The position numbers and the translations under genes are program-made. Shown in pieces: positions 2,882-64,000 of a stretch of DNA of 64,000 nucleotides; within the stretch, counting starts at the first letter, position 1, and every line of letters starts with the position of its first letter. The stretch lies in NCBI GenBank assembly GCA_951406725.2, contig OX597815.1:196788001-196852000 (forward strand). Direction: 5' to 3'. The DNA comes from Octopus vulgaris. Taxonomy: Eukaryota. The notes beneath the pieces were generated by a model. It was given only the letters and a program-made list of their open reading frames with translations. It searched no databases and was not told where the DNA came from.

Positions 2882-2932
2882 GTTTTCTCTCTTAATCTCT
2901 TTCGTTCGTCTACCTCTCTCTTTCATTCTTTA

Positions 2933-3160
2933 TACTCTTTTACTTGTTTCAGTCATTTGACTGCGGCCATGCTGGAGCGCCGCCTTTAATCGAGAAAACT
3001 CGACCCCGGGACTTATTCTTTTTCTAAGCCCAGTACTTATTCTATCGGTCTCTTTTGCCGAACCGCTAAGTAACGGGGACATAAACACACCAGCATCGGT
3101 TGGCAAGCAATGCTAGGGGGACAAACACACTCACACAAACACACACACGCATATATATAT

Positions 3161-3191
<31 letters not shown>

Positions 3192-3355
3192 CGACGGGCT
3201 TCTTTCAGTTTCCGTCTACCAAATCCACTCACAAGGCTTTGGTCGGCCCTAGGCTATAGTAGAAGACATTTGCCCAATGTGCCACGCAGTGGGACCGAAC
3301 CCGGAAGCATGTGGTTGGTAAGCAAGCTACTTACCACACAGCCACTCTTGCGCCT
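2933..3355 (-). mobile_element. tRNA-derived SINE family A, full length
   Basis: A box TGGCTGTGTGG and B box GGTTCGGTCCC on the minus strand, internal (TA)n(TG)n, AAACAAGTAAAAGAGTA tail; more than 15 similar copies in the window. Confidence 0.9.
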
Positions 3356-3388
3356 ATGTACGTATCCATTATATGTGCCCCTGTGTGT

Positions 3389-6821: not shown

Positions 6822-7619
6822 CTAACTTCGGACATATATATACATACATGCACAGTATACAGGGCAGGAGAGAGAGACAAATAGACAGAGAATTAGGCCT
6901 TTCGTTATGCCTTGATTGTCGTACCTCTTAATGAATATCCTTATTTTGTCAATGCCTGTACCTAATCAATTAGACATGGTTACGTTTCTATAGTGGCTCC
7001 ATTCTTTTAGATGCATATAACAACCAGAATCAATGTGGTCATCAAATAATCAGCTTCTCGATATTTACTGAGATACATTATTAAGAAAATGCACCCTCAA
7101 TAACTTATAAAGCAAGAGAAAGAGGAATTACAAAAATCGCACATTTTTGTTTATTATAAGATAAAATATGGGCATCATTGTTCAAACTTGAAAATATTCA
7201 CAAATACGATGTTATTGAAAATAAAGTGGTATTTTGGTTTCAAAGTTGGAAAAGTATTTTAAAATCTTAAAATAATTTTTAAAATTCGTTATTAAATGAA
7301 CACAAAAGATATTCTACATGTCTCATATTAGAACGTACAAGATTCGTTTAAAATTTAATTCCCTCATATCAGCTTTGGAGCATTATCATAAGTACTCTTA
7401 CAGGTTTCCTGACGTCAACACACATATTTACTTAGATTTTTCTCTATAGTTTTATTTCTAGAGAAGTTTGTTGTTACATTATATCAACCAATATAGGCGG
7501 AAGATTGTGATAGCGTTTGTAAATGTCAATTAAAGTAAATCTCCTTCGAGCGGAAATTTAAATGAGCATTAGATGCACAATCCACATGAACATATCTACA
7601 TTCATTCATTCCTATACCT

Positions 7620-18600: not shown

Positions 18601-18819
18601 TCTTTTACTCACTTTTTACTCTTTTACTTGTTTCAGTCATTTGACTGCGGCCATGCTGGAGCACCGCCTTTAGTCGAGCAAATCGACCCCGGGACTTATT
18701 CTTTGTAAGCCCAGTACTTATTCTATCGGTCTCTTTTGCCGAATCGCTAAGTGACGGAGACGTAAACACACCAGCATCGGTTGTCAAGCAATGCCAGGGG
18801 GACAAACACAGACACATAA

Positions 18820-18852
<33 letters not shown>

Positions 18853-19024
18853 CATATATACGACAGTCTTCTTTCAGTTTCCGTCTACCAAATCCACTCA
18901 CAAGGCTTTGGTCGGCCCGAGACTATAGCAGAAGACACTTGCCCAAGATGCCACGCAGTGGGACTAAACCCGGATCCATGTGGTTGGTTAGCAAGCTACT
19001 AACCACACAGCCACTCCTGCGCCT
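18601..19024 (-). mobile_element. SINE family A with probable 16-bp TSD
   Basis: ATRTTCGTATATTCTT at 18579-18594 and 19025-19040; lies beside an older A tail remnant (about 19038-19075). Confidence 0.9.
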
Positions 19025-20206
19025 ATATTCGTATATTCTTTTACTTGTTACGGTCATTGGAGTTTGGCCATGCTGGTGGAGTGAATCTGAAGTCATGTTT
19101 GCGGCATGGACTTTTTAAAGACACACCCATGGATATCTTTGCCTCAGTAACGAGATTTCTGAAACTACAGAGTTTTAGTTGTTCACAGCAATGATTATAA
19201 TGATAATAATATAATGGTCATGTACCTCATTAACATCTCTATATGCTAAGGAATATTTAATATTAATTTTTGTTTGTAATATTAGATATGAAATTAAATA
19301 CTCATACCACTGACTTACATATGTACCATGAATAAATATATAAATATCAATTTTCAATTCAGAATTATTCAAAGCTGTTTAATACGCTGGAAGAGAAGAA
19401 AGCAGTTTTCACAGCTATAGTGATAGAGATTGTTCAGAGGCTGATATGATTGGAGAAAAATAGTTTTGTTTGATTAAGTTCATGGTTCTTTTCGATTAAG
19501 TTCCCATCGAATTTCCTAGCTTCACTTGAAGTAAGTGAGTGTGGAGGAAAAGTGCTGCACTCTAATGAATTGATTAAATGTTATGATGTTTTTATTTCGG
19601 CAATTTGGTCAGGTTTCCAATCAAGACCCCATCACTAAACGCGTACACACATGCACAAACAGTATTCGTCCTTTCATACTACCTAAATGTTGAAAATATT
19701 TTTCTTGTTCTTATTTATAGAGAGTGTTATTGTGTTTACTTTTGTGATGCGGATGTATCGTAAGTTATTCGTGTCTTAGAAGTGAAAGTATCTACATTTT
19801 TCACGTCATGTTGCTGTTTTTAAGAAATCTCCTTTGTGCGCAGGTGAGGTGAAACAATTGCATTCATTGGTTTGTGGATAAAAGGTGTAGATTTGATGGT
19901 ATCGGATATAATCCTCATCATTTCATTCAACTTCATTTCGAGTGTATTGCTATGGAGAATATGGAACAATCTGCAGGAAAAAAGGCGTATCCAGGTTTGT
20001 GAACAAAATTCGATTATTATTGTAGCACACAAAGTCAATAAAGATGTTCGACGCAGAATTTGAGATTCTAACCTGATGTTCGAGTTACCTTCTTAACCAA
20101 CATTCCCTAGGATTTAGATTACATAGTCGCATAACACACACACACACACACACACACAAGGAGACAGAGGTGCATACATATACAAACACACGCTCACCCA
20201 TGCACA

Positions 20207-20575: not shown

Positions 20576-21090
20576 GTGCATGCATGCATAGGCACACACA
20601 CACTGACCCACGCACATGCGCACAAACAAACAAAGAGGAACGCAGTGTAAATAACGGACAGTGTCAAGACTATTGAAAAAGGTTGCAAGACGCAACGAAA
20701 ATTGTCGGAAAATAAAAATAATAAATAAGTGGAAAATTTACCGGTGAGTGTGTTAAATAATAAGGCACTAAAAGAAAATTACTTTCCCCAGACACAACAA
20801 TAAAATATAGTATTTTGCCGGGTACTACTACAAAGCATCCGGGTGTCTTTTCCGAATGTTTCAGACTGTTTTTCATCTATATTTGCAGTTTTTACTATGT
20901 CTTATGCTTGTTGAAGTCGGATAAAGTAGTCACTTTTTTGTGTTGGCTGTTAGATATCAGCAGGAAAAAGGTTTCGGAATTTGATTGATGCTCCTACATA
21001 TCATCTCTATTTCAGTCGCAATGTTTGATTGGTGGGCTATAGCTACGTCTACTGTACGTCTAAATTTAAGGAGTCTCTTCTCAAGTATGT

Positions 21091-21313
21091 TACTCTTTTA
21101 CTCTTTTACTTGTTTCAGTCATTTGAATGCGGCCATGCTGGAGCACCGCCTTTAACCGAGCAACTCGACCCCGGTATTTATTCTTTTTGTAAGCCCAGTA
21201 CTTATTCTATCGGTCTCTTTTTGCCGAACCGGTAAGTGACGGGGACGTAAACACACCAGCATCGGTTGTCAAGCAATGCTAGGGGGACAAACACAGACAC
21301 ACAAACACACACA

Positions 21314-21350
<37 letters not shown>

Positions 21351-21510
21351 GACGGGCTTCTTTCAGTTTCCGTCTACCAAATCCACTCACAAGGCATTGG
21401 TCGGCCCGAGGCTATAGTAGAAGACACTTGCTCAAGGTGCCACGCAGTGGGACTGAACCTGGAACCATGTGGCTGGTAAACAAGCTACTTACCACACAGC
21501 CACTCCTGCG
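21091..21510 (-). mobile_element. SINE family A
   Basis: Full-length similarity. Confidence 0.9.
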
Positions 21511-21744
21511 TTGTTGATATAAATATTGTAAAAACTCATTTTCCTGCTCTGGTCACTGAGAAACCTATAAAGTAATCCATATATATATATATTTTTAATT
21601 TTAAATGTTCACTTAAATTTAATGAGTTTGGAAAGTATTAATATAAGACGTTCATGCCAAACAGAATCGTAAGCGGCCGAGAAATCTATAAAGATACTAT
21701 GTGAATTCAAACTTTATTCTTAATATGAATCGCTGTAAAATTGT

Positions 21745-22135
21745 GTGGAGGCGCAATAGCCCAATGGTTAGAGCAGCGGACTCGCGGTCATAGGATCGCG
21801 GTTTCGATTCCCAGACCGGGCTTTGTGAGTGTTTATTGAGCGAAAACACCTAAAGCTCCACGAGGCTCCGACAGGGGATGGTGGTGATCCCTGATGTACT
21901 CTTTCACCACAACTTTCTCACCCTCTTACTTCCTGTTTCTGTTTTACCTGTATTTCAAAGGGCCGACCTTGTCACTCTCTGTGTCACGCTGAATATCCCC
22001 GAGAACTACGTTAAGGGTTCACGTGTCTGTGGAGTGCTCAGCCACTTACACGTTAATTTCACGAGCAGGCTGTTCCGTTGATTCGGATCAACCGGAACCC
22101 TCGTCGTCGTAACCGACGGAGTGCTTCCAAAAAAA
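21745..22135 (+). mobile_element. SINE family C with 11-bp TSD
   Basis: TSD TGTAAAATTGT (21734-21744, 22136-22146); near-identical to 12416-12811. Confidence 0.9.
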
Positions 22136-23048: not shown

Positions 23049-23078
<30 letters not shown>

Positions 23079-23084
23079 GGGTAA

Positions 23085-23412
23085 AGACCCCCTTCGGTCA
23101 TGAATGACCATGGGATTGCACCTAGAAAGTTACCCTCCTAGACACAAGTCCGGGCAAGGTTGTTTATGGAAGACCAGCAGTCGCCCATGCATACCAGCCT
23201 CCCCTCTCCACTCCACCAGTGTTTTCCAAGGGAAAGACAAAGGTCGATACAGCTTGGCACCAGTGACGTCGCAACTCATTTCTACAGCTGAGTGAACTGG
23301 AGCAACGTGAAATAAAGTGCCTTGCTCAAGAACACAACACCCAGCCCGGTCCGGGATTCGAGATCACAACCTCACGATCGTAAGCTCGACGCTCTAACCA
23401 CTGAGCCATGCG
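23085..23412 (-). mobile_element. tRNA(Arg)-like CORE-type SINE family E
   Basis: Head ATGGCTCAGTGGTTAGAGCGTCGAGCTTACGATC, CORE-like TTCTTGAGCAAG.CACTTTATTTCAC, tail CATGACCGAAGGGGGTCT. Confidence 0.85.
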
Positions 23413-23627
23413 ATATAACATATGTCTTATTCGCCTACCCTCTTGGAGGGAGTTCAACTGCTCATCCACAATGTTAAGGTCCTGTGTGTTTTCATATTCC
23501 CACTCAATATCACCACTACTTCCTGGAGGAACAGGACATGTGTCGGGTTATGTTTTCTTGAGAAGAGCTTCTTACTGTAAGCATTATTAAATCTCAGAGC
23601 GAGATGTAAACAGTAACCGCTCGACAA

Positions 23628-23984
23628 TGTAAAGTATAAAAGCCATCTCAATATGGCTAACCACTAAGGGTGGGTGTTACTGTAGCTTTTAGCCCCAGGA
23701 GATCATCGTCTCCAGCTGGCTTTAGACACACTTTCTGTGTCCTTGAAGTATTTTCAAAGGGAGGTCACCCCTTCCTCGTAAGCCTGAGTGATACGCACGG
23801 ACCGGTTTCGAGATTATTGTCTCTTATCAACGGGCGGTAACCACTCCCTTTGCAAATACTTCAAGGACACAGAAAGTGTGCCTAAAGCCAGCTGGAGACG
23901 ATGATCTCCTGGGGCTAAATAGCTACAGTAACACCCCCCCACACTTTGTGGTTAGCCATATTGAGATGGCTTTTATACTTTACA
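23628..23984. mobile_element. Fold-back element (about 136-bp inverted arms) with a hammerhead in the spacer
   Basis: Arms 23628-23763 and 23844-23984 are near-perfect reverse complements. Confidence 0.85.
23794..23836 (-). ncRNA. Minimal type-I hammerhead ribozyme, U3-A8 variant
   Basis: CGCCCG-UUGAUAA-GAGA-CAAUAA-UCUC-GAAA-CCGG-UC/CGUGCG: stem I 5 of 6 pairs, stem II 4 bp, palindromic helix III, GUC cleavage triplet. Confidence 0.7.
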
Positions 23985-24098
23985 GCTTCTTGCTATTTTA
24001 CACAAACAGTTTGTTGGATCTTTCTACAGAGCAGTGTGTTATTTATCTTCTGTTATAAAGTTTTTTTTTTAATATAACACATATACTATTTCCTTTTT

Positions 24099-24342
24099 GT
24101 GGAGGCGCGTGGCTTAGTGGTTAGGGTGTCAGCATCATGATCGTAAGATTGTGGTTTCGACTCCTTGACCGGGCGACGCGTTGTGTTCTTGAGCAAAACA
24201 CTTCATTTCACGTCGCTCCAGTCCACTCAGCTGGCAAACATGAGTAACGCTGTGATGGACTGGCGTCCCGTCCAGCTGGAGAACGCATAGAAACCTGGAA
24301 ACCGTTTCCGTGATCCTGGCTAGGCTTTAAAAAAAGGGCGCA
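24099..24342 (+). mobile_element. SINE family F (tRNA head, CORE-like block, V-like block)
   Basis: A box TGGCTTAGTGG; middle shared with family E; GATGGACTGGCGTCCCGTCCAG shared with family D. Confidence 0.75.
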
Positions 24343-25000: not shown

Positions 25001-25070
25001 GTGAAAGCGTATGGCTTAGTGGTTAGAGCGTCGAGTTTACGATCGTGAGCTTGTGAGTTCGAAATCCGGA
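25001..25070 (+). mobile_element. SINE family E, head only
   Basis: tRNA-like head similarity. Confidence 0.7.
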
Positions 25071-25083
25071 CACACATTCTCAG

Positions 25084-25126
<43 letters not shown>

Positions 25127-25127
25127 T

Positions 25128-25461
25128 GTGAAGGCTCAAGGCTCAGTGGTTTGAGCGTCAAGCTTACGGTCGTGAGGTTGTGAGTTCGAATCCCGGACCG
25201 GGATGCGTGTTGTGTTCTTGCGCAAGACACATTATTTCACGTTGCTCCAGTTCACTCAGCTGTAGAAATGAGTTGCGACGTCACAGGTGCCAAGCTGTAA
25301 CAGCTTTTGCCTTTGCCTTGGATAACACTGATGGCGTGGAAAGAGGAGGCTGGTAGGCATGGTGACTGCTGGTCTTCCATAAGCAGCCTTTCCCGGACTT
25401 GTCCCTGGCAGGGTAACTTTCTAGGTGTAATCCCATGGTCAGTCATGACCGAAGGGGGTCT
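25128..25461 (+). mobile_element. SINE family E, full length
   Basis: Matches the reverse complement of 23085-23412. Confidence 0.9.
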
Positions 25462-34623: not shown

Positions 34624-35463
34624 TGAGGTCTGAGCAATAAGTATTCGTACTGTTGCCATTGTAACGAAACTAAAGCACACAGAGTGCAGCCGCTTGGAAA
34701 CGCACTATGTTCTAACGTTCTAGCTCACTTCTGCTGTTTACAGCTTCGAAACATGTGTAGGATGTGAACGTCGCATTGACCATGACAGTGAAAATTGTCA
34801 TGGCGATACCGGTTCAGAGGTCTACGCAAAGTTGCAGAAAGTGTATGGAGAGCAGTGTATGATTGGTTCAGATGTTTCCAAGATGGCCGAAAAATGTCGA
34901 TATTGACGACCGTTCTGGGAGACCTCCAATCATCAGGACTGAGAAATGCATCGCAGATGTGCGTGCAGCTTTGAACGGAAATCGTCAAATCACCCTTCGT
35001 AAGTTATCAGAGGATTTGCAGATTAGGTACAGTTCAGTTCAGTCTATTATCGCTAAAGGTTTAGGTATGAGACGCGTGTTTGTCAAGTTTGTGTCTAAAC
35101 TGCTTTCAGCTGATCAAAAACCCACTCGAGTTTCAGTTGCACAAGATCTCCTTGATTGAACGAGAATCATGAAAACTTTTTGAAAACTTTACGTAGATCT
35201 CTGAGCAGGTATCGCCAAGCTTTTGGCAAAATTTGATGCAGATTCTCTGCTCAACTTTCTCTCTCGTCTTCAATGCGACGATCACACGCAATGTACCTTA
35301 CATCTAAGCACTGTTGTAAACAACGGAGGTGAGTTGGAGCGTTAAAACTTAGTGCGCACGCACGGCATAGTTCAAGGTTAATCTTTGCCCAGTAGCTTTA
35401 CTCTGCGTACTTTAACAGTTCGTTACTATGACAACAGTCCGGATACTTATTAATCAGACCACG
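34624..35463 (+). mobile_element. mariner-derived non-autonomous transposon
   Basis: TIRs of about 65 bp flanked by TA; transposase N-terminal remnant DDRSGRP...ITLRKLSEDL...GMRRV..KFV.KLL (34810-35159). Confidence 0.9.
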
Positions 35464-35812: not shown

Positions 35813-36235
35813 TACTCTTTTACTCTTTTACTCTTTTACTTGTTTCAGTCATTTGACTGCGGCCATGCTGGAGCACCGCCTTTAGTCGAGCAAATCGACC
35901 CCGGGACTTATTCTTTGTAAGCCCAGTACTTATTCTATCGGTCTCTTTTGCCGAACCACTAATTGACGGGGACGTAAACACACCAGCATCGGTTGTCAAG
36001 CAATGCTAGAGGGACAAACACACAGATACACAAACATATACGTACACATACATACATATATATACATATATACGACAGGCTTCTTTCAGTTTCCGTCTCC
36101 CAAATCCACTCACAAGGCATTGGTCGGCCCGAGGCTATAGCAGAAGACACTTGCCCAAGATGCCACACAGTGGGACTGAACCCAGAACCATGTGGTTGGT
36201 AGGCAAGCTACTTACCACACAGCCACTCCTGCGCC
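35813..36235 (-). mobile_element. SINE family A with 7-bp TSD
   Basis: TATGATT at 35806-35812 and 36236-36242. Confidence 0.9.
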
Positions 36236-36752
36236 TATGATTGAATATACTTTTGATAGGTCTGTTGATAGGGGTATCTTTAGTTTTAAAATATTTGCTT
36301 AATAAATCTTGGGTTCACAATTATTGCAAAGTTTGACACTGGGGGAAATTACACCATCGGGATTTTATATCTATACGGACATCTCGTATCAGGATGCATG
36401 TAGAAGCATTTGTTTGAATGTCATATCATAAAAAGTACTGCTATATTTCTTATTTCTTATTTCAACGTTTATATTTTAAAATGAAGTGATGCTACAAGCC
36501 GAATTTATACGGGCGCCATGGAGGATTGTGATCGTATATGTGCAGTTCTTTTCTAGGTCCCTGTGTGACAGACAAATAGTCTGGTCATTGACTTCGTCAC
36601 AATATGATCAGGCATATGTGTCCGTATGAATATATATATATATATATACACATATATATATATATATGCGTAAATATGTACATATAGATGCGTGTATATA
36701 TATATATACATATATGTATGCAGATGCAGATGCATAAATATGTATGTATATA

Positions 36753-36946
36753 TACTCTTTTACTCTTTTACTTGTTTCAGTCATTTGACTGCGGCCATGC
36801 TGGAGCACCGCCTTTAGTCGAGCAGATCGACCCCAGGAATTATTCTTGGGAAGCCTAGTACTTATTCTATCGGGGCTCTTTTGCTGAACCGCTAAGTTAC
36901 GGGGACGTAAACACACCAGCATCGATTGTCAAGCGATGTTGGCGAG

Positions 36947-36985
<39 letters not shown>

Positions 36986-37156
36986 CATATATACGACGGG
37001 TTTCTTTCAGTTTCCGTCTAGCAAATCCACTCACAAGGCTTTGGTCGGCTTGAGGCTATAGTAGAAGACACTTGCATTTGGTGCCACGTAGTGGGACTGA
37101 ATCCAGAACCATGTGATTGGTAAGCAAGCTACTTACCACACAGCCGCTTCTGCGCC

Positions 37157-37157
<1 letters not shown>
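36753..37157 (-). mobile_element. SINE family A
   Basis: Full-length similarity. Confidence 0.9.
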
Positions 37158-37222
<65 letters not shown>

Positions 37223-41153: not shown

Positions 41154-42058
41154 TGGGTCATCCCATAAATAATGCAGGGTTTTTATATACTTCTTTTATC
41201 TTTCAAATTTAAGATTTAAAAATTCTTTTTTAATCTAATATATACTATCCTTCATTTTCTACAATGCTCTTCATTCTATCTGGTAGACTTGCAATGGCTC
41301 TTTTTCAAAATATGAAAAATACTCCTCCATTATTGTTCTGACCTCATCTGCAGAATTCATATTTTTCAGTCCAAATGATTTTGAAAACTGTGGAATTACT
41401 GATAATCAGAAGGCGCAATGTCCGGCGAATATGGTGGGTGGGGCACCATATCCTATTCAAACTGTTCCAGCCTTTGGAAGTTATGCTCAGTGTATGTGGC
41501 CGAGCATTATCCTGATGGAAGAACACCTTTCAACTCGAAACCAAAGATGGTCGTGTTTCTTCTGGTTCTGGTGTCGATGAATGGTTGAATGACCAAATCC
41601 AAGTTTCTCTGCTAGGTCCTCAACAGTTACGATGGAATTTTGTACCACTAGGGTTTGCAGGACATCCTCGTCCAGCTCTACAGATCTTTGAGGACGAGAT
41701 TCGTCCTCTAGGCTGTAGTTTCCGGCTCGGAATTTCTGGAACCACTGTTGACACTGACTTACGCTTATTGTTCGACCTCCATATATTGCATTAATATTCT
41801 GCGCACTTTCCGTTGCATTGTTGCTTTTATTGAACTCATAAAGCAAAATATGCCGAATATGCTTCTTTGTCACTTCTATTATAACTCTGAAAAGTAACTG
41901 TTAAAATCGAACTACGCTCTTCAAAACTTGCACTAAGAATAAGTACAAGGTAAAATTTCTACCTGCTTTTATAGCAAGTTGGTGGAGGTAGTTTATCCCG
42001 TCCCCTTCTGACGTTAATTCCTTCAATTGAAAAAGTGCATTATTTATGGGATGACCCA
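41154..42058 (-). mobile_element. mariner transposon, internally deleted
   Basis: TIRs TGGGTCATCCCATAAATAATGCA (41154-41176, 42036-42058); HTH ORF 41873-41487; FHQDNARPH and HPPYSPDIAPSDY motifs; first catalytic Asp region missing. Confidence 0.92.
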
Positions 42059-47815: not shown

Positions 47816-48320
<505 letters not shown>

Positions 48321-48574
48321 ATAGTAACAAAAGATGCTACGCATGCGCACAAGGAGTGTAACCACCAAACTGAGTGTAATCAACAAATTTCGAGCGCCTG
48401 AGCATCTTTAAAGCTTGGAAACAAACGCTGATGAGGGGCGCACCGTTCCATGGTTGACTCTTATCTTTGTGAATTTATCTAACGAACGACGTGTGAGAAA
48501 GGTAATTTATTTTATAAAATCCTAGAGTGTATTGCAAACTTTCGCTCTTCAGTTTTTTTTACTAATAAATGTTT

Positions 48575-61787: not shown

Positions 61788-64000
61788 TTTCTTTATTAGC
61801 CACACAGGGCTGCACACAGATAGAACAAATTACAAGGTAGAGCTTTTCTTTTGAAGGTTTAAAAAAAAAAAAAAAAAAAAGAAAGGGGGTAGTTTCGATC
61901 AAAAGGGATCGTAAAAGGAGAGAAGGAGGACAAAAAAGGGGGGTTAAAAAAAGGGGGGAGAGGAAAAAAATGATCAATAGGGATCGTTATCACAGAAATG
62001 TCAATATGAAGTGTAAAGGGGAGGACAGATGAGGTTTACCCGTGGAAAGAAAAGCCTACGGAAAAGACCACGGTAACCTCGGTCAATGAAGTCACATTTT
62101 ATATTTCTTTTTTTTTTTTTTTTTTTGCAAATAAGCAACTCTCTGTTTTCAATTTCTGGGTTCATAGGATTATGCTCAAGGTGGCTTCGTCATTCATACG
62201 TGCCATTCTTGCTACATTCACCCATCTTTTTTTAAAACATTCGCTAGACAAAACTTGCCTCTCTACTCTCACTTTCCTTTTCAAGTGGTACTTGAAGAAG
62301 TTGATGAGAGATTGACCAGAGAGGAAAGTGTTTGTCTCCAATCCTTTCAGACGCGTCCACCAGATACATTCCTTCGCCATAGCCACAAGGATGATGAAAA
62401 TGGCTCTTCCTTCCCGTTTGAAGGAAGGAGGCGTGACAATATTGACGATAGACTCAGCTGATAAACCGACTCGTCCCACACGTGACAGCAGTTGTTCGAC
62501 ATAAGCCCACAGGTCGGAAATTGTTGGACACTGAACGAGTGCGTGCAGAACGGTTTCGTCGCTCTGACCGCATCTCGGGCAGGTCGGCCCCGTGTTTCTC
62601 GAGCCGTGTCTGTAGAGCTTATCCCGAACGGGTAGCGCTTCTCGGTAGCACTGCCAGGCCAGGGATCTCTGGAAGTTGTCCATGGGCCCTGGCCCGAAAG
62701 TCGTCCTGAACAGGCGGGTCAGGTACTCCTCGTTGACGTCCAGGTTCGCCCCGAGCTCGTCGTCGTACCTCCCCACTAAACCCCTATAGAATGCTTTGGT
62801 TGTGTTGAAGTCACTTAAGGTCGACCCAGGACGGCAGAGTTGCTTGAGAGCAACGCGACACTCGCGGTGCCATTCGCCCTTCATCGGCCTCTTTTTGATC
62901 CACGACTGCAGTTCGGTCATGGAGACGAGCTGCGGGAAAGCGTGCCTCACAAACGGCGACCACACCTGTTCACCGTCGTCTACATAGAGCCAGAGATGTC
63001 GCAGTCTCAGCGCGTGTCTGCGCATCATCAACCACGGCATGCCCAGCCCTCCTTTTAACGGGTGTTGACAGCAAATGGATCGCCTGACCATCGGGACGCA
63101 TCCTTTCCACAAGAAGCGAAAGAGAATGCGTTGTAGTTTGGTGATGGTAGGGTCGGGACAAGGTACGATGGTCAGGCGGTAGTAGATGACGGACGCGATG
63201 TACGTGTTCGCCACCTCCGCTCGACCTTTTAGGGACAGTTTCCTCTCGGCCCATTGCCGGGCGAGAGTGACCACCCTACTCGTTATCTCGTTCCAGTTCT
63301 TCTCCACTTGGAGGTCCGGACCAAACCAGACCCCGAGCAACTCAACCGGGCCGTCGGTCCAACGTCCCACGACGGAGGCGCTGGTGGACGGCATGGGCTT
63401 GCTTCTCCAGGTGCCTAGTCGCAAGCCCACTGACTTTTCCCGGTTGATTTTCGCTCCTGTCACCGCTTCGTAGTTTTTCAGTGTCTCGCCGACCAGCTCG
63501 ATGTGCTCGTGGCTTGACACTATGACGGTGACGTCGTTCGCGTATGCAGACACGCTCGTCCAGCATCCCAATTCTCGCGGGATGCCCCTTAGAGTCGCCA
63601 GCTTCCGTAGTAGTGGCTCAAGAGTCAATACGTATAGAAGCGCCGAGAGGGGGCATCCCTGACGGACCGAACGTGCAATGTTGAAAGGTCTCGATAGATG
63701 TCCATTTACGCGAATTACCGAACGGATGCCTCTGTACAAGGCAGCTATCCAGCCGCGGAAGACGGGACCGAAACCAGCCGCTCTCAGGACTGCCTCCAAG
63801 TATCGATGGTCTACCCTATCAAAGGCTTTCGATTGATCCAAGTTGATCAGGGCCCCACCCATGCCAGGTTCGTTAACTACCCTGTCTATGATGTAGCGCA
63901 TCAGATGGAGGTTGTCATGGATGCTCCGGCCCGGCACGGCGCACGTTTGTGCATTGTCGACCAGTTTCTCGATGACAAGCGCCAACCTCTTGGCTAACAC
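61788..64000 (-). mobile_element. L1/Tx1-clade LINE, 3' part (runs off the window)
   Basis: GC-rich ORF2 plus a 3' UTR ending AATAAAGAAA at (GACA)n. Confidence 0.92.
62162..64000 (-). CDS. L1/Tx1-clade ORF2 partial: reverse transcriptase and C-terminal zinc knuckle; catalytic motif reads YAND
   Basis: LDQSKAFDRVDH, VRQGCPLSALLY, SAYANDVT, GGLGMP, CPRC....ETVLHAL..CP; open for 612 codons to the window edge. Confidence 0.9.
   Translation of the reverse strand: MLAKRLALVIEKLVDNAQTCAVPGRSIHDNLHLMRYIIDRVVNEPGMGGALINLDQSKAFDRVDHRYLEAVLRAAGFGPVFRGWIAALYRGIRSVIRVNGHLSRPFNIARSVRQGCPLSALLYVLTLEPLLRKLATLRGIPRELGCWTSVSAYANDVTVIVSSHEHIELVGETLKNYEAVTGAKINREKSVGLRLGTWRSKPMPSTSASVVGRWTDGPVELLGVWFGPDLQVEKNWNEITSRVVTLARQWAERKLSLKGRAEVANTYIASVIYYRLTIVPCPDPTITKLQRILFRFLWKGCVPMVRRSICCQHPLKGGLGMPWLMMRRHALRLRHLWLYVDDGEQVWSPFVRHAFPQLVSMTELQSWIKKRPMKGEWHRECRVALKQLCRPGSTLSDFNTTKAFYRGLVGRYDDELGANLDVNEEYLTRLFRTTFGPGPMDNFQRSLAWQCYREALPVRDKLYRHGSRNTGPTCPRCGQSDETVLHALVQCPTISDLWAYVEQLLSRVGRVGLSAESIVNIVTPPSFKREGRAIFIILVAMAKECIWWTRLKGLETNTFLSGQSLINFFKYHLKRKVRVERQVLSSECFKKRWVNVARMARMNDEATLSIIL

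Follow-up and report, generated by a model that had tools for sequence, protein, structure and literature searches.

The window, that is, the whole stretch of 64,000 nucleotides analysed here, contains a fold-back of 357 bases (23628-23984). Its left arm (23628-23763, 136 nt) and right arm (23844-23984, 141 nt) are separated by a spacer of 80 nt (23764-23843). When the arms were aligned with each other, 132 of the 141 columns were matches, the others being 4 substitutions and 5 gap columns, and identity reached 97% across the ungapped columns; the near-perfect arms and 80-nt spacer described in an earlier reading of the sequence (the original prediction) were thus recovered. The folding energy of the fold-back was -265 kcal/mol (z -30), and none of 100 shuffled sequences was equally stable. 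This agrees with the earlier proposal that a transcript would form a long dsRNA.

The whole unit is larger than the fold-back. It spans 411 bp (23574-23984), with about 54 bp beyond the left arm and nothing beyond the right arm, and is bracketed by an 8-bp direct repeat (23566-23573 and 23984-23991); no longer exact repeat of the right boundary occurs within 23530-23632. The chance of finding a repeat of at least 8 nt in the same geometry was 0.0008, as calculated across 12,652 random positions. Because this repeat and the cover by contigs of the same repeat family (see below) bracket the same span, the limits of the element were placed at 23574-23984, with a one-sided tail. The extension of about 54 bp past the left arm, the outer 8-bp repeat and a C-U mismatch at 23833/23797 come in addition to what the original prediction had described. 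No second copy of the element was found by blastn within the 64,000-nt window. The parts of the locus are as follows:

23566-23573, no strand: probable target-site duplication, left copy, AGCTTCTT (exact 8-bp repeat)
23574-23627, minus strand: 3' tail of the direct copy, about 54 nt, on one side only (contig cover in four runs)
23628-23763, minus strand: left arm, the 3' part of the terminal repeat in the hammerhead-bearing direct copy (arm alignment; peak family depth)
23764-23793, minus strand: linker 3' of the ribozyme, with the outer 3' strand of helix I to about 23786 (HH9 alignment)
23769-23763, minus strand: GGUGACC, in or next to the linker, predicted to compete for helix I's 5' strand (P 0.75-1.0 when the full fold-back is modelled)
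23794-23836, minus strand: type I hammerhead core (motif reading, descriptors, Rfam alignment)
23837-23844, minus strand: 5' strand of the internal loop in helix I (GUUAC, which fits the HH9 consensus) and 5' end of the direct copy
23844/23845: inversion junction (other copies run past 23844 with different sequence)
23844-23984, plus strand: right arm, an inverted, 5'-truncated copy of the same 3' end, placed head to head and lacking both tail and ribozyme (arm alignment)
23984-23991, no strand: probable target-site duplication, right copy, its first base common with the arm end (exact repeat)

Two further points of anatomy concern the ends of the copies. The junction is self-complementary, GGTAACC (23836-23842) being able to pair with GGTCACC (23763-23769). 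On the ribozyme strand, folding of the tail and arm end predicted two stem-loops, which may possibly serve as start signals for the enzyme.

Such long inverted arms, present at high copy number and accompanied by many short elements running from arm to arm, recall a MITE or a fold-back DNA transposon, in which the arms would be TIRs and the hammerhead a captured passenger. We consider this highly improbable. The direct repeat is separated from the left arm by 54 bp of one-sided family sequence, and the ends are asymmetric; junctions vary between copies, and the copies that carry the hammerhead run upstream into non-arm sequence. The original prediction had itself named a transposon with TIRs and a regular target-site duplication as the finding that would speak against it, and the repeat does not adjoin both arms.

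The hammerhead is read on the minus strand. Its core consists of UUGAUAA, GAAA and GUC, with U3 at 23830, A8 at 23825, U16.1 at 23801 and C17 at 23800, and it lies 172 nt from the arm end. Helix I (23836-23831/23799-23794) has five of six pairs, the exception being the C-U mismatch already mentioned. Helix II (23823-23820/23813-23810) has 4 bp and is closed by loop 2, CAAUAA; it is followed by GAAA (23809-23806). Helix III is reduced to one pair and the palindrome CCGG (23805-23802). Judged by its sequence, the motif has the features of a hammerhead core (3-8 pair, GAAA, UH site), and the putative U3-A8 pair retains the 3-8 pair. Cleavage is predicted between 23800 and 23799, in accordance with the original prediction.

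A comparison with Rfam was consistent with this reading. The model Hammerhead_HH9 (RF02275) aligned end to end with 23778-23848 of the minus strand at 36.5 bits (E 1.4e-7 for 601 bases and 1.5e-5 in the search of the whole window), and the alignment takes in GUUAC, on one side of the internal loop in helix I, as well as the CAAUAA loop 2. The gathering score of 52 bits was not reached, and at the gathering cut-off there were 0 matches; the motif resembles HH9 without qualifying as a member. A strict hammerhead descriptor found a single site in the window, compared to 3 in 300 block-shuffled windows. The U3-A8 hammerhead motif with its GUC site stands as quoted in the original prediction and is not attributable to chance. 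Among the 150 of 420 Rfam matches listed for the whole window, it was the only ribozyme, the remainder being microsatellites that hit miRNA models, plus two pestivirus UTR matches, both weak. A loose descriptor also picked up an AT-rich candidate at 7215; this second site was absent with the strict descriptor and was rejected. Among viral contigs, a degenerate U3-A8 pattern gave 87 matches, none of them with both stems.

The repeat family was characterized using contigs from four public runs (X1, X2, X5 and X10), one per organism label, aligned to 23420-24090; these are 4 of the 20 runs with matching words, none of which contains half of the query words and none of which is on record as RNA. 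The numbers of contigs aligned to the element in the four runs were 4545, 2069, 1384 and 105, indicating an abundant repeat. The tail was covered in all four runs over 23579-23627 (the pieces listed begin at 23579-23590). Depth was zero over 23420-23557 and, on the right side, at 23995-24040, with no counterpart of the tail past 23984. In X1, summed depth, which is not a copy number, fell from a maximum of 1.8 million in the left arm to 18,000-53,000 over the spacer; the profile was alike in the other runs, with a strong bias toward the 3' end of the ribozyme strand.

Joints between distant parts of the element were then considered, 15 of 21 being listed. Nine of these 15 link the left and right arm on the same strand, each with its own breakpoint and each in one contig, and in one further joint, also found in one contig, the ribozyme side ends at 23837. 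Two 'opposite strand' joints at 23843/23844 could be read in two ways and were excluded. In other copies (12 contigs in X1 and 5 in X5) the sequence past 23844 is not that of the arm. The loose ends of contigs also revealed another subfamily, whose tail is much shorter and which has the TAAGCATT motif in common near the far end.

The history of the two arms can be followed through their differences. At 23640/23972 both arms carry one allele, and 93 to 98% of the family depth has another letter at this place; each arm also has a private change, at 23754 on the left and at 23920 on the right. Since a family-rare allele is common to both arms and private changes are found on each side, we infer that both were made from one template and drifted afterwards by about 3%. 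Divergence amounts to 4 of 136 bases (95% CI 0.8-7.4%) plus two indels, that is, six places. The insertion, called 'young' in the original prediction, can accordingly be regarded as recent, not as brand new. These same six places, with private changes on both sides, bear on whether the fold-back might be an assembly artefact, a read having turned on itself. The flanks are without cover in all runs, and none of the 32 pieces listed out of 8153 crosses 23844/23845, as such an artefact would have it. Besides the arm differences, however, an 8-bp duplication brackets the unit, and similar junctions occur in independent contigs, so that the probability of an artefact is close to negligible.

In one of the runs, X10 (presumed to be RNA), several A-to-G differences were seen over 23660-23705 at about 18 to 20%, compared to less than 4% in the DNA-type runs, other changes being raised too. 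This gives no evidence of RNA editing: the excess of A-to-G plus T-to-C in X10 was 24:12, compared to 11:13, 11:12 and 11:14, which is not significant (p 0.11-0.18), and the run has another organism label.

Variants within the family inform on the ribozyme. Positions 23803 and 23804 vary at near-equal depth (0.62/0.62 in X2, 0.62/0.58 in X5 and 0.32/0.24 in X1), which turns CCGG into CUAG, and one X10 contig has CUGCAG as loop 3 together with G-C in place of A-U at one pair of helix II, A8 being kept. That loop 3 is palindromic in other copies suggests selection at the family level for cleavage as a dimer; the CG-to-TA change could also be a double CpG decay in one ancestor. A change at 23811, present in 37 to 56% of the depth in the three DNA-type runs, breaks a pair of helix II, and no compensating partner change was found among the 40 of 83 variant rows listed. 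The same 40 rows contained no change at 23830 (U3) or 23825 (A8). Since every row listed attains about 16% in at least one run, a C3-G8 form would probably not be common among contigs 80% alike. Loss of the core in relatives was the other finding that the original prediction had set against itself, and the core is kept where visible.

We then asked what activity would be expected of the copy at this locus, using folding models that leave out tertiary contacts and proteins. Forcing helices I and II cost 3.3 kcal/mol for the ribozyme by itself or as long as the 3' arm is not yet transcribed, and 7.1 kcal/mol in the full hairpin. Helix II was stable (P 0.77-0.96), helix I had P 0.17 or less, and the ACCGGU self-duplex was estimated at -8.3 kcal/mol. 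In the full hairpin the arms zip onward through GGUUACC/GGUGACC (P 0.75-1.0), and the P of helix I drops to 0.0. As modelled, a complete helix III requires two copies, and the hairpin, once finished, would compete with the ribozyme and displace helix I. A tandem partner is absent, and the inverted arm has no second ribozyme. Because a second ribozyme would be needed as partner, self-cleavage of the lone copy is predicted to be poor. A cut at this locus would need two transcripts meeting before the 3' arm exists; once finished, the RNA is predicted to be double-stranded over a long stretch, its helix I displaced.

A precedent is found in the axolotl HHR_Amex1, which has a one-pair helix III and a palindromic tetraloop, and is described in PMC7229834 and in the review PMC6765202 as weak as a monomer and better as a dimer. 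It is likely that the ribozyme of the parent family works in the same way, as a dimer through a palindromic helix III. These predictions run counter to two earlier claims. The ribozyme had been described as 'held' in the loop of the hairpin, and the finished hairpin is predicted instead to pull helix I apart. It had also been ranked first among the candidates for an active variant ribozyme. It is indeed the sole hammerhead-like match in the window, among the matches listed and with the strict descriptor, but its dimer-type helix III without a partner, its helix I mismatch and the modelled displacement of helix I by the hairpin do not sustain its rank with respect to activity.

The opposite possibility, that this copy is an efficient stand-alone ribozyme steadied by loop 1-loop 2 contacts and closed by the arms, is improbable. 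A U3-A8 pair is reported to be active in vitro (PMC3088659), helix II is stable and the loop motifs fit HH9, and the penalty is just 3.3 kcal/mol before the 3' arm is made. Helix III, however, has one pair and a palindrome, helix I contains the C-U mismatch, and the arms are predicted to compete with helix I rather than to close it. Moreover, in a preprint (10.64898/2026.07.22.740005), 8 of 9 predicted Xenopus retrozyme dimers are reported without cleavage.

The interpretation that we prefer, with a probability of about three in four, is that the 411-bp unit is a single 5'-truncated insertion made by the enzyme of a Penelope-like retroelement (PLE), with a ribozyme that is predicted to depend on dimer formation for cleavage and to cut poorly as a lone copy. 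An RNA uncut at the GUC site would be reverse-copied from a start about 54 nt past the arm end, through the ribozyme, and copying would halt at the outer edge of helix I (23844). The second arm would be made from the same template, with a start at the tail-less site; alternatively, the new DNA would fold back, GGTAACC pairing with GGTCACC. Integration would duplicate 8 bp, and the arms would then drift by about 3%. The intact GUC site fits a template that was either uncut or re-ligated.

The anatomy of endonuclease-bearing PLEs, as outlined in PMC3846280, PMC8557442 and PMC8969392, comprises inverted pLTRs placed head to head, an optional one-sided tail, a TSD of 8 to 10 bp and junction palindromes; the published tail is 30 to 40 nt long. 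For a lizard PLE, PMC11167929 states that the tail spans the stretch from one RT start site to another, that the main substrate is unprocessed RNA and that the ribozyme is protein-assisted. Several hallmarks of PLEs were found at the present locus: an inverted, 5'-truncated copy placed head to head, a one-sided tail, a probable 8-bp TSD, 5' truncation, and a hammerhead motif in the terminal repeat. The insertion unit known from Adineta Pen2a (PMC3846280), from the PLE scheme of PMC8557442 and from the tail mechanism of PMC11167929 has in common with this locus the head-to-head 3' ends, the optional one-sided tail and the 8-bp TSD, and also strong 5' truncation, a hammerhead in the terminal repeat and self-complementarity of the junction. 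By contrast, the tail here is about 54 nt rather than 30 to 40, the ribozyme is canonical rather than minimal, and no ORF was seen or linked. A Pfam search of five reading frames over the element returned no family, with no RT or GIY-YIG ORF linked to it, and exact family patterns, two of which were searched in metagenome contigs, gave 0 and 0 matches. Membership among the PLEs thus rests on anatomy. The Penelope-type inverted-end insertion of the original prediction gains support from the one-sided tail, the 8-bp direct repeat, the 3'-biased family and the varied junctions.

A further point speaks against a PLE origin: in PMC4209133 and PMC7229834, the 6+4-bp form and the loop-contact motifs are linked to retrozymes rather than to metazoan PLEs. 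Non-LTR retrozymes are short, rod-like, circularising RNAs with tandem units, each with a type I hammerhead, and with linear and circular RNA of 170 to 400 nt. The parent could be a non-autonomous element of this kind, mobilised by PLE proteins and having no coding parent, the locus then being a truncated, inverted monomer inserted by the same chemistry. The canonical helix sizes and HH9-like loop motifs would fit, and so would the sequence found upstream of 23844 in other copies: of the 30 letters visible, 26 pair by eye with 23787-23755 (22 Watson-Crick and 4 G-U pairs on the ribozyme strand, with three bulges). Because these 26 letters pair, helix I seems to be prolonged into an imperfect rod in the parent RNA. 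Such a longer imperfect rod recalls the highly self-paired retrozyme RNAs of PMC7229834, and the preprint 10.64898/2026.07.22.740005 derives retrozymes from PLE pLTRs. However, the window has a single hammerhead copy with no tandem unit, no go-back joint was seen among the 15 of 21 joints listed, the loose ends of contigs at the termini differ for the most part from one another, and a bias as steep as this toward the 3' end is in keeping with truncated copies that are dispersed. We regard a retrozyme-type parent as unlikely.

A wider reading, which we hold to be rather unlikely, would combine these features at the level of the abundant family: a canonical hammerhead of the tertiary-contact type with a fixed U3-A8 pair, located at the tip of a long imperfect RNA rod and cleaving as a dimer (CCGG, CUAG, CUGCAG), in a protein-free retrozyme whose insertions bear all the Penelope marks (tail, inversion and TSD). 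If true, the anatomy of these insertions would give direct evidence for the use of PLE machinery by retrozymes, and the turning of copies at the edge of helix I would be accounted for by the rod.

Returning to the probable insertion by a Penelope-like enzyme, we compared its hammerhead with known ones. A U3-A8 core is already published, including in PLEs. It is presented as an active compensatory pair in vitro in PMC3088659, and about 1,300 minimal U3-A8 hammerheads are tied to Schistosoma Cercyon PLEs in PMC4209133. The core pair is the same here as in the covariants of PMC3088659 and in the Schistosoma motifs, which, according to PMC4209133, are PLE-linked and mostly single. The latter have a helix II of 7 to 8 bp, a helix I of 4 to 5 bp and a poorly defined loop 1, whereas the motif studied here has a helix II of 4 bp, a helix I of six positions and HH9-like loop motifs. 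With HHR_Amex1 and HH9 it has in common (PMC7229834) the one-pair helix III, the palindromic tetraloop and the loop 1/loop 2 contact motifs, and by analogy with HHR_Amex1 a dimer requirement would be expected; it differs from them by its U3-A8 core, its solitary rather than tandem arrangement and its score of 36.5 bits against 52. For the giant squid, 235 hammerheads are mentioned, without detail, in PMC6962438. No description of the family was found in the literature searched on U3-A8 hammerheads, on hammerheads of octopus Penelope elements and on cephalopod retrozymes, repeat databases and most subscription papers lying outside this search.

The locus itself is ordinary retroelement debris. 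The family is a modest addition, as an animal repeat of high copy number that carries a U3-A8 hammerhead of canonical shape; its natural variants test the dimer model, and it offers a handle on the question whether ribozymes of the retrozyme type ride on Penelope-type insertions.

Several other repeats lie in the window. The element is flanked by two SINE-like repeats with tRNA-like heads, recognized by eye, at about 23076-23412 (minus strand) and 24100-24320 (plus strand), both directed away from it; similar heads are present near 21747 and at 25008-25140, and ARAGORN found no tRNA. A reverse transcriptase fragment (63701-63997, minus strand, Pfam RVT_1, E 2.9e-7) is located in the GC-richer end of the window, 40 kb from the element. 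A mariner-type transposase fragment was found at 41490-41900 (minus strand, Pfam HTH_48, E 3e-20), and fragments resembling it lie near 34863 and 57552, without a matching Pfam hit. Finally, repeats several hundred bases long and containing microsatellites (D17, D19 and D20) form a dispersed family, with copies at 2919-3365, 18603-19034, 21085-21523, 35815-36246, 36747-37167 and 47816-48383.
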